In this document: positions 33,357-34,586 of the stretch, piece after piece
Layout of the letters: the number at the start of each line of letters is the position of its first letter
Numbering within the stretch: the stretch's first letter is position 1
Source: Holosporales bacterium
GTDB taxonomy: Bacteria > Pseudomonadota > Alphaproteobacteria > UBA3830 > JAIRMZ01
Direction: 5' to 3'
Assembly: GCA_031279495.1 (NCBI GenBank)
Contig: JAITIJ010000074.1
Coordinates: 1 to 42,506, forward strand
Length of the DNA: 42,506 nucleotides
The notes under the pieces: model-generated
Database searches by the model: none
Seen by the model: only the letters and a program-made list of their open reading frames with translations
What the model was told of the DNA's origin: nothing
Translations under genes and position numbers: made by a program

Positions 33357-34586
33357 TTACTCGTGATGAGTTGCTCTGTGAGGGGCTTCATGAGTTGTAG
33401 GTCTGTGGACTGGAGCCTCTGCTGCGTGTGTTCCGGCTGTTGGGACTTTCCTTAGTCTCACTTCGCTAAGACTTTTTGCTCCGCCTGTTGGAACAATAGA
33501 TTTCTTTCCTGCTTCTCCAGGTTTTGCCGCTGGTGCCTTTGCTGCGGGAGGCGGCGGAGGCGGTGGTGGAGGCACATGCGCTGCTGCGTGTGTTCCGGCT
33601 GCTGCTGACGTTGCCGCTGCTGGGTGTGCTGCCCCTCCGGCTGCTGCGTGTGTTCCGGCTGCTGCTGACGTTGCCGCTGTTGGGTGTGCCGCCCCTCCGG
33701 CTGCTGCGTGTGTTCCGGCTGCTGCTGACGTTGCTGCTGTTGGGTGTGCCGCCCCTCCGGCTGCTGCGTGTGTTCCGGCTTCTGGGTGTGCTGGCGACGG
33801 AGGTGCTGACGAAGCCCTCTTTTTATCTAGAGTCGCTTTAGCAATTGCCAAAGCTCCAGGAGTTACGCCGCGCTGATCAACATGCGGAATCTCTCTTTTT
33901 ACAGTTTCTGTAGGTCTTAATTCTGATCTTTTAGTCCTCACATCTTCAAGGGATGGTGCCCTTGGTAGAAGCGGCACATGTGTTTCTGGGTGTGCCTCTC
34001 CAGGTTTTGCCGCTGGTGCCTTTGGTGCGGGAGGCGGCGGAGGCGGTGGTGGAGGCACATGCGCTGCTGGGTGTGTCTCTCCAGCCGCCGCGCGTGCTGG
34101 CGACGAAGGTCCTATCGCTTGTCTTGTCACTGGAGCTTCATGTGACCTCTCTCTTAGTCTTGTGGTTGGTAGCGTCGGAAGCCGTTGTACGGGCGCTTCA
34201 TCAGCACCTCTTGGCGTTCTTTGGTGGAAAGGAGCACGAGGGTGCTCTGGAACACCTGCTGCGGGAGCAAACCTTGCCGGGTCTCTCTTTTGTGGAACCC
34301 TCTGGTGTAGCTCAGAAGCCTCTTGTCGCCTTCTCTCCTGTTTCGCATTCCACCGAACGCTTCCGGCCGGTGCTTTCCTTTGCAATTGCGGTCTTGAAGC
34401 TGTGCCTTGCGGCAACGTCCTCGGCGCTTGTGGACCACCCGAACGTGGTGCTGCTGCTCGTGGAGAACCACCAGGACCACTCCCAGTTTGATTGCTAGCG
34501 TCTAATGCCACAGAGGGGCTAGTAAATGATAGGACGCTTATCAACGTTGTGATAGAGACGCCCCATAGGACCTTTTCTTTAATCAT
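33357..34586 (-). CDS. Exported Pro/Ala/His-rich repeat protein with two poly-Pro modules (orphan; candidate effector)
   Basis: GGGAGA lies 6 nt upstream of the ATG. The Sec signal is MIKEKVLWGVSITTLISVLSFTSPSVA|LD. Two copies of HVPPPPPPPPP-A(P/A)KAPAAKPGEA are present. The 20-aa unit GTHAAAGGAAHPTAATSAAA occurs 3.3 times. The tail is His-rich. A strong terminator lies downstream. ORFs in other frames and on the other strand in the same region are artefacts of the GC-rich repeats. Confidence 0.8.
   Translation of the reverse strand: MIKEKVLWGVSITTLISVLSFTSPSVALDASNQTGSGPGGSPRAAAPRSGGPQAPRTLPQGTASRPQLQRKAPAGSVRWNAKQERRRQEASELHQRVPQKRDPARFAPAAGVPEHPRAPFHQRTPRGADEAPVQRLPTLPTTRLRERSHEAPVTRQAIGPSSPARAAAGETHPAAHVPPPPPPPPPAPKAPAAKPGEAHPETHVPLLPRAPSLEDVRTKRSELRPTETVKREIPHVDQRGVTPGALAIAKATLDKKRASSAPPSPAHPEAGTHAAAGGAAHPTAATSAAAGTHAAAGGAAHPTAATSAAAGTHAAAGGAAHPAAATSAAAGTHAAAHVPPPPPPPPPAAKAPAAKPGEAGKKSIVPTGGAKSLSEVRLRKVPTAGTHAAEAPVHRPTTHEAPHRATHHE
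33515..33586 (-). repeat. Copy A of a roughly 72-bp intragenic direct repeat (poly-Pro module)
   Basis: CTCCAGGTTTTGCCGCTGGTGCCTTTGCTGCGGGAGGCGGCGGAGGCGGTGGTGGAGGCACATGCGCTGCTG recurs at 33997..34068 with one mismatch (GCT versus GGT). Confidence 0.9.
33581..33780 (-). repeat. In-frame 60-bp tandem repeat, about 3.3 copies
   Basis: Sequence lines 33601, 33661 and 33721 are identical except for 3 single-base differences, giving an exact period of 60 nt. The unit encodes GTHAAAGGAAHP(T/A)AATSAAA. Confidence 0.92.
33997..34068 (-). repeat. Copy B of a roughly 72-bp intragenic direct repeat (poly-Pro module)
   Basis: It is near-identical to 33515..33586 and lies 482 bp away in the same orientation and reading frame. 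Confidence 0.9.

Follow-up and report, generated by a model that had tools for sequence, protein, structure and literature searches.

What does an exported protein without any recognisable domain do in a bacterial order whose known members are all obligately host-associated (PMC11909080)? The question is raised by a gene on the minus strand of contig JAITIJ010000074.1 of a Holosporales bacterium (assembly GCA_031279495.1), the whole 42,506 nucleotides (nt) of which were analysed and are called the window below. The initial annotation had read its product of 409 amino acids (aa) as a candidate host-actin effector, built from two poly-proline tracts, each followed by a WH2- or thymosin-like motif. 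Judged by sequence comparison, the gene is real, regulated and fast-evolving, with short constrained motifs, and the LKKV-type motif that follows the proline tracts is a genuine, repeated and conserved element that resembles the divergent GAB class, not canonical WH2. We favour, at a probability of roughly 40%, a reading of the protein as a host-facing, fast-evolving exported array of short linear motifs that mimics the poly-Pro plus GAB arrangement.

Public data hold four relatives of the PpiD encoded immediately upstream, and only the closest (~79% identical, on ENA scaffold L002) keeps the order tpiA, ppiD, X, nusB and rluD-rlpA, in which X (2948..4278) is the orthologue of the 409-aa gene. 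Two 100-N scaffold gaps in its repeat regions split the L002 orthologue into three pieces, each of them open, and the ENA gene caller missed it, calling an antisense open reading frame (ORF) instead. In the relatives whose PpiD is 52–59% identical, other genes follow ppiD. The ORF originally placed at 33357..34586 is present in the window as described, and its boundaries and expression signals are as follows.

33357..34586, minus strand: coding sequence, 409 aa plus stop, identical to MDR2417231.1, a hypothetical protein of a Holosporales metagenome-assembled genome
34506..34586, minus strand: Sec-type signal peptide, aa 1–27, with MIKEK, a 16-residue hydrophobic core and S25-V26-A27/L28, and no lipobox
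34594..34598, minus strand: Shine–Dalgarno (SD) sequence GGGAG, 8–12 nt before the ATG
34587..34691, minus strand: promoter/leader block of ~105 nt, 93–96% identical to L002
34635..34650, minus strand: TTAA-N7-TTAAC, the CtrA-box consensus, 50–65 nt upstream of the ATG and identical in L002
33306..33336, minus strand: intrinsic terminator, a 9-bp GC-rich hairpin with a T-run at 33316–33336, shared with the convergent nusB and conserved in L002

The cleavable Sec signal claimed for the protein is, by inspection, typical of its kind, with K3 and K5 in the n-region and small residues at −3 and −1, and it is kept in L002 (23/28 identical). The SD sequence, the strong terminator and the upstream CtrA-box that had been reported with it are likewise all present and all conserved there. 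Outside the promoter block the spacer is ~60–70% identical, and the 4-fold degenerate sites of neighbouring genes are 61–73% identical. TTAA-N7-TTAA occurs at this single site in the whole window; because ~1.18 sites are expected per window, the site is not significant by itself. The box suggests that the gene may be controlled by CtrA and so tied to the cell cycle or to a developmental stage. The conserved block extends from about −105 to +27 nt of the coding sequence (34560–34691, minus strand; L002 2840–2975), with the first nine codons 100% identical. Such a block exceeds the needs of a promoter and may be an mRNA leader or a translation-initiation structure; an Rfam search of the −105 to +27 block gave no match.

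The window's protein and its L002 orthologue are ~48% identical, and the neighbours ppiD, tpiA and nusB ~80–87%. The islands conserved between the two are the signal peptide, GS-x-RW-x-A-x-QER, four copies of EAPV[HQT]R, the Pro9-10 tracts, ETVKR-x-IPHVD-x-RGV-x-P-x-AL and KKS-x-x-PTG-x-A-x-S-x-S-x-V-x-L-[KR]-KVP. Differences between the two genes number 100, 82 and 167 at codon positions 1, 2 and 3 (p = 3e-8), and this concentration at position 3 supports both the reading frame and the strand. Within the Pro9-10 tracts 6/9 and 7/9 codons have changed, with 13 synonymous changes and 0 non-synonymous ones; because the changes are synonymous only, against neutral 4-fold sites that are 61–73% identical, the tracts are held by protein-level selection and not by DNA slippage. 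Consecutive prolines stall the ribosome and carry a translational cost (PMC4176338, PMC5811046). At the level of sequence comparison, these data demonstrate purifying selection on the motifs.

The product itself is dominated by a few residues (A 21%, P 16%, T 8%, R 8%, G 8%, S 6%, H 6%), with no Cys or Tyr. Along the chain, the following elements are recognised from the sequence and its comparison with L002.

34299..34364, minus strand: the GS-x-RW-x-A-x-QER island, aa 75–96, a charged helix predicted by AlphaFold2 and conserved in L002
34122..34199, minus strand: two N-terminal EAPV[QT]R motifs, aa 130–135 and 150–155, with EAPVHR at the corresponding places in L002
33993..34061, minus strand: module 1, H-V-P9-APKAPAAKPGEA, aa 176–198
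33849..33908, minus strand: the most conserved internal island, ETVKREIPHVDQRGVTPGAL, aa 227–246, with 16/20 residues identical and 6 synonymous codon changes relative to L002
33580..33784, minus strand: tandem repeat of 60 nt x 3.4 (20 aa), unit AGTHAAAGGAAHPTAATSAA
33510..33578, minus strand: module 2, H-V-P9-AAKAPAAKPGEA, aa 337–359
33375..33419, minus strand: C-terminal EAPVHR and EAPHR, aa 390–395 and 400–404, with a His-rich tail

The two near-identical H-V-P9-A-[PA]-KAPAAKPGEA modules of the initial annotation are real and occupy aa 176–198 and 337–359, with the P9 tracts at aa 178–186 (34029–34055) and aa 339–347 (33546–33572), KAPAAKPGEA at aa 189–198 and aa 350–359, and a nucleotide identity between modules of 73/75 nt. 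The four EAPV[HQT]R motifs per chain were absent from that description, and the 20-aa tandem repeat was missed. The most conserved internal island has the window/L002 consensus ETVKR-x-IPHVD-x-RGV-x-P-x-AL listed above. In place of the 20-aa repeat, L002 has a different unit, AAGTAHT (7 aa), in ~10 copies or more, and histidine (6% of residues) is regularly spaced within the repeats of both orthologues. How many copies are counted depends on the assembly, and the L002 gaps lie in the corresponding repeats. The Pro-tract codons of L002 differ from the window's and from each other; taken with the near-identical modules of the window, the pattern suggests that gene conversion has acted recently within the gene in the window lineage. 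The exact 409-aa product had no match in the contig index. An independent assembly of this organism, a Logan contig found through the neighbouring gene (L007 2874-3539, SRR14710901), carries aa 1–186 and then the sequence that follows module 2 (AAKAPAAKPGEAGKKS...); either that assembly has collapsed the repeats across the 73/75-nt modules or the contig shows a genuine deletion form without aa 187–347. AlphaFold2, run on the single sequence, predicts a mostly disordered chain (mean pLDDT 48.6) with four short helices only, at aa 12–20 (in the signal peptide), 77–96, 213–220 and 243–258; the segment of highest confidence is the charged helix at aa 75–96 (pLDDT ~79).

The window and L002 share three homologous LKKV-type sites, not two, the third (M2) having been overlooked before.

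33900..33959, minus strand: M1, APSLEDVRTKRSELRPTETV, aa 210–229, with a predicted helix at aa 213–220; L002 has THEALKGVKLKTAETV
33810..33863, minus strand: M2, TPGALAIAKATLDKKRAS, aa 242–259, degenerate in the window, with a predicted helix at aa 243–258; L002 has SPEALQAVKLRKVSPE
33438..33506, minus strand: M3, KKSIVPTGGAKSLSEVRLRKVPT, aa 361–383, with no predicted helix; L002 has KKSVLPTGKATSISGVTLKKVPA

In the three-site alignment M1 is represented by SLEDVRTKRSELRPTETV in the window and THEALKGVKLKTAETV in L002, and the unit common to M1–M3 is h-x-x-V-x-L-[KR]-K-V, with strict L[KR]KV at M3 in the window and at M2 and M3 in L002. M1 lies where it had been described. The second motif of the earlier description, AKSLSEVRLRKVPT, corresponds to aa 370–383 (33438–33479) within M3, and so starts at 33438 and not at 33444; its L002 counterpart is ATSISGVTLKKVPAS. 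The two motifs start 11 and 10 residues after their modules, in line with the spacing of about 10–15 residues given originally, and the distance from the end of P9 to the L of the motif is 37 residues (M1) and 31 residues (M3) in the window and 25 in L002. A proline-rich region therefore stands N-terminal to a GAB-type motif, as in Ena/VASP. What had been described as poly-Pro followed by a basic L-[KR]-x-[VT] motif is correct as an arrangement and incorrect as a canonical WH2 identity.

The resemblance to actin-binding motifs was measured against control sequences validated by Pfam and PDB. On PF02205, whose gathering threshold is 23.1 bits, seven WH2 peptides (WASP, two of N-WASP, WAVE2, WIP, MIM and Vrp1) score 36.8–52.3 bits. 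Thymosin beta-4 scores 81.9 bits on PF01290 and 14 bits on PF02205, and VASP GAB, the sequence of which was confirmed in PDB 2PBD chain V, crystallised with profilin-actin, has no Pfam match; since these two score so low on the WH2 profile, weak WH2 scores leave actin binding possible. A home-made WH2 hidden Markov model (HMM) was then built from the seven validated peptides, and each query was compared with 2000 composition-matched shuffles of itself. VASP GAB reaches 9.4 bits (shuffles as high, 0/2000) and thymosin beta-4 8.2 bits (1/2000), and the sites studied here follow with 7.7 bits for L002 M1 (1/2000), 4.8 bits for window M3 (2/2000), and 3.5 bits each for L002 M2 (4/2000) and L002 M3 (10/2000), while window M2 receives no score. 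Four of the six sites beat their own shuffles in this way, 1–10 of 2000 shuffles reaching the observed score. Among 30-aa windows of the other genes of the contig (n = 1068), 5 reach 4.8 bits and none reaches 7.7. The L002 sites (EALKGVKLKTAET, EALQAVKLRKVS and SISGVTLKKVP) look more actin-like than those of the window, and L002 M2, ALQAVKLRKVS, shares 7/11 residues with AIAGAKLRKVS of VASP GAB. A loose motif pattern catches 8/9 controls and has 2 matches in the window's protein, with at least 2 matches in 4/5000 shuffles. A candidate form of the ELM regular expression for WH2 failed on most true WH2 controls and was discarded.

Searches for further relatives gave a consistent picture of an orphan. 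Pfam and NCBIfam found no domain in the full protein even at E ≤ 10, as the initial annotation had supposed. A word-indexed search of 5.8 billion clusters found no homologue, its candidates being swamped by low-complexity words, and an exhaustive phmmer search of 1.84 billion cluster representatives (~15 billion proteins) yielded nothing beyond the 72-aa IMG fragment of the protein itself and a single spurious match, a beta-propeller repeat protein with a score inflated by five weak repeats. A profile built from the conserved islands, stripped of the Pro and Ala repeats, added no new member, nor did two metagenome scans with the patterns MIKEKVLW, KR[EA]IPHVD and IPHVD.RGV.P.AL, and a scan of genome contigs with the neighbouring PpiD yielded an unrelated Nitratifractor locus only. 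PDB sequence searches with both modules and the L002 motifs gave chance matches only (a TAL effector, E = 0.06; a designed protein, E = 7). The genes without Pfam match beside tpiA in the more distant relatives L004 and L006 proved to be unrelated membrane or other proteins. Orthologues in free-living relatives had been named as a sign of an envelope role; none was found there, nor any beyond one sister genome among the collections searched.

How might such an array work? Sec would carry the protein across the inner membrane, with cleavage after Ala27, and would leave a mature chain of ~380 residues with no predicted folded domain, in effect a string of short linear motifs with disposable linkers. 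The motif set would comprise two Pro9-10 tracts, three h-x-x-V-x-L-[KR]-K-V motifs, four EAPVHR motifs and a variable His-bearing Ala/Gly/Thr repeat, each LKKV-type motif lying some 25–37 residues downstream of a Pro tract or of the preceding motif. We envision a periplasmic store of the protein that is exposed or released when the bacterium meets its host, in the manner reported for periplasmic proteins of Holospora. The Pro tracts could then dock host poly-proline readers, either profilin or SH3/EVH1-type domains, and the LKKV-type motifs could engage G-actin, much as the proline-rich region of Ena/VASP passes actin to the GAB motif. Profilin needs runs of roughly 6–10 prolines. Expression would be timed by CtrA through the TTAA-N7-TTAAC box. 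What we infer in this scheme is that the protein passes beyond the periplasm, that it binds profilin or actin and that CtrA controls its gene.

A proline-rich region N-terminal to a WH2 or GAB motif is the arrangement of the WASP family, Ena/VASP, BimA and VopL (PMC9569871), and the Pro-rich regions of Sca2 recruit profilin-actin (PMC9569871, PMC11077975). With Ena/VASP and Burkholderia BimA the 409-aa protein shares a disordered chain and a poly-Pro tract 20–40 residues N-terminal to h-x-x-x-x-K-L-[KR]-K-V, whereas it has no EVH1, FAB, coiled coil or trimeric autotransporter and is Sec-exported without an anchor. Like the L002 M2 site that matches it at 7/11 positions, VASP GAB is invisible to the Pfam WH2 profile; in the 409-aa protein family, however, the helix before LRKV is shorter and less hydrophobic, and actin binding is a prediction from sequence resemblance. 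Canonical WH2 proteins (WASP, WAVE, WIP and MIM; VopL/VopF, TARP, RickA and Sca2) also carry an LKKV-type motif after a proline-rich region, in several copies, but the 409-aa protein fails PF02205, leaves the LLxxI helix unmatched and has no C/A region, VCD or passenger domain. Unlike the type V autotransporters BimA, Sca2 and IcsA, it has no C-terminal beta-barrel by Pfam/NCBIfam and ends in a disordered His-rich tail with a final E. Within the order, Holospora makes use of host actin and, with most secretion systems lost, still exports mainly through Sec (PMC9866348, PMC5911502), and an 89-kDa periplasmic protein of the H. obtusa invasion tip has been described with two actin-binding motifs that become host-exposed (PMC9866348). 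That protein is, like ours, from Holosporales and, being periplasmic, presumably Sec-exported; it is much larger, and since the 409-aa protein has no homologue in the databases searched, the two are not detectably related.

A number of results weigh against the reading of the protein as a host-facing motif array. At E ≤ 10, PF02205 and PF01290 match neither the full protein, nor the L002 pieces, nor isolated 27–34-aa peptides, and canonical WH2/thymosin membership is rejected because the controls score 36.8–52.3 and 81.9 bits on these profiles. The home-made HMM aligns only its positions 15–27, the LKKV half, and leaves the amphipathic LLxxI helix unmatched. In the window M1 (LRPT) and M2 (LDKK) are degenerate, M1 of L002 reads LKTA, and window M1 stays at background (−1.8 bits; shuffles as high, 344/2000). 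The counterpart of LKKTET reads LRPTET in the window versus LKTAET in L002, with TET not kept, and the thymosin resemblance originally seen in the first motif is not conserved. Nor is the proposed TARP/VopL-like WH2 mode supported; what remains is the weaker resemblance to VASP GAB. The loose-pattern test is weak evidence because the pattern was written post hoc, and the conservation statistics are weak because the family has two known members, on whose two sequences all conservation arguments rest. Pfam/NCBIfam and the sequence revealed no module for export past the outer membrane (beta-barrel, lipobox or other), and host delivery is not established because the Sec signal stands without an autotransporter or other export domain. 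To our knowledge, type VI secretion is not expected to carry a Sec-exported protein. It is the likeliest effector-delivery route according to a review of Holosporales (PMC11909080). Neither an oligomerisation element (VASP coiled coil, BimA trimer) nor an F-actin-binding motif was found by Pfam/NCBIfam, and AlphaFold2 predicts short isolated helices only. A cautionary case is Rickettsia RARP-1, which experiment placed in the periplasm, not secreted (bioRxiv 10.1101/2022.02.23.481736).

The alternative that survives best, and one we hold to be possible, is a disordered periplasmic or envelope protein without host contact, which might serve as a spacer, scaffold, chaperone-like or storage protein, or as a His-rich metal or pH buffer; the Pro tracts would then be rigid rods and the basic motifs would bind peptidoglycan, lipopolysaccharide or envelope partners. 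The locus lends itself to such a role. Its gene order is amiA, PBP1A, the rluD-rlpA ORF, tRNA-Lys, nusB (convergent), the 409-aa gene, the ppiD-like gene immediately upstream of it, tpiA, pyrG and kdsA, so that the "pure housekeeping" surroundings first described are housekeeping in part and also include envelope genes (amiA, PBP1A and rlpA). A place directly downstream of a periplasmic chaperone gene, ppiD, and near amiA, PBP1A and rlpA speaks for the periplasm, as do the cleavable Sec signal with no onward export signal and the regular spacing of histidine (6%) in the repeats of both orthologues, and CtrA-type control would suit a cell-cycle or envelope gene. RARP-1 adds a precedent: this protein of an obligate intracellular alphaproteobacterium, too, has a Sec signal, a long disordered stretch and repeats of eukaryotic character, and it was at first regarded as an effector until it proved periplasmic, although its repeats are ankyrin repeats and it has no sequence similarity to the 409-aa protein. 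TonB/TolA spacers are likewise exported and have a Pro/Ala/Lys-rich extended segment comparable to APKAPAAKP. The 409-aa protein, by contrast, has no N-terminal anchor, TonB_C or TolA domain III by Pfam and NCBIfam, carries a cleavable-type signal (S-V-A/L), has pure Pro9-10 runs in place of (EP)n/(KP)n and is not conserved across relatives. Its absence at the locus in the relatives with PpiD 52–59% identical, and from every other genome searched, argues against a core envelope function, and it evolves far faster than its neighbours. We know of no periplasmic reader of pure Pro9-10 tracts.

The same rapid divergence, together with the orphan status of the gene, the change of repeat unit from 20 aa to 7 aa between the orthologues and the evidence of intragenic gene conversion, would also fit a protein that has nothing to do with actin, namely an adhesin or a variable coat protein, at the surface or secreted; its repeats would turn over under host recognition or pressure of the immune type, and its motifs would have other ligands, of host or bacterial origin. 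We regard this as unlikely, given that the protein has no anchor, barrel or lipid-attachment site and that this reading does not account for why the Pro9-10 tracts and L[KR]KV sites are so strictly kept.

Improbable, too, is a narrower version of the favoured reading, in which the protein would nucleate or sequester actin as a true tandem-WH2 or beta-thymosin factor of the TARP/VopL type. Three LKKV-type motifs per chain, with M1 and M2 ~30 residues apart as in tandem WH2 arrays, and the poor showing on PF02205 of thymosin beta-4 (14 bits) and VASP GAB (none) speak for it; the missing PF02205 and PF01290 matches, the unmatched helix half, the differing TET of LKKTET in the two orthologues and the degenerate M1 and M2 of the window speak against it. 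A chance ORF in GC-rich repeat DNA is very improbable, since the partial call in IMG (the last 72 codons only), the opposite-strand call of ENA in L002 and the long ORFs in other frames are outweighed by the conserved SD sequence, signal peptide, terminator and promoter, the frame that is open in each L002 piece, the bias of differences towards codon position 3 (p = 3e-8) and the synonymous-only changes in the Pro tracts.

Several other features of the window were noted in passing. A 553-aa ORF at 30961-32622 (plus strand) joins an RluD-type pseudouridine synthase (aa 36–352) to an RlpA/DPBB domain (aa ~384–505), with an internal lipoprotein-type signal, LFLLCVVSAC/SG, between both domains; in L002 (5021-6622, minus strand) the two are likewise one ORF of 533 aa with PF00849 and PF03330. 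Two readings fit: a cytoplasmic and a periplasmic protein are joined by conserved read-through or fusion, or an internal start has gone unrecognised. At 9068-10354 (minus strand) a lone flagellar hook/rod-type gene (Flg_bb_rod, FlgE D1, Flg_bbr_C) stands among housekeeping genes; a possible part in invasion or secretion has been discussed for the flagellar genes of Holosporales (PMC11909080). A tRNA-Leu(tag) gene at 40687-40771 overlaps the 5' end of the listed trigger-factor ORF (40693-42180, plus strand), and the real start of tig lies downstream of the tRNA because Trigger_N begins only at residue 34. The plus strand further holds a 196-aa exported protein without Pfam match (5341-5931), with a signal peptide, a Pro/Thr-rich disordered stretch and C-terminal hydrophobic segments, a 108-aa ORF predicted to be exported with a lipobox, LLGC (4573-4899), and, upstream of transketolase, a 108-aa ORF that looks HU/IHF-like (2112-2438).

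According to a 2025 review of Holosporales, the molecules with which these bacteria deal with their protist and animal hosts are only partly understood, and the few Holospora proteins that have been studied show little homology to anything else. Against this background, a conserved exported protein made of eukaryote-like short linear motifs is a concrete candidate, and a cheaply testable one, since assays against profilin and actin are feasible with peptides or with the recombinant protein. The strongest form of the proposal seems rather doubtful to us: that this is, for the Paracaedibacter-like or termite-gut-type Holosporales, the first actin/profilin-targeting factor defined by its sequence, disordered and domain-free, with a convergent Ena/VASP-like poly-Pro plus GAB arrangement in two to three tandem copies, a CtrA-timed expression, and a route through Sec, periplasm and release that was previously seen only cytologically in Holospora. 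Should the protein be periplasmic, it would stand as a second warning, after RARP-1, against taking eukaryote-like features in Sec-exported proteins as effector signatures. If the favoured reading is true, actin-machinery mimicry would arise from motifs alone, without a folded domain or a dedicated secretion system, and this orphan protein would add a new form, domain-free and routed through Sec, to the known bacterial effectors in which a proline-rich region is paired with WH2/GAB.

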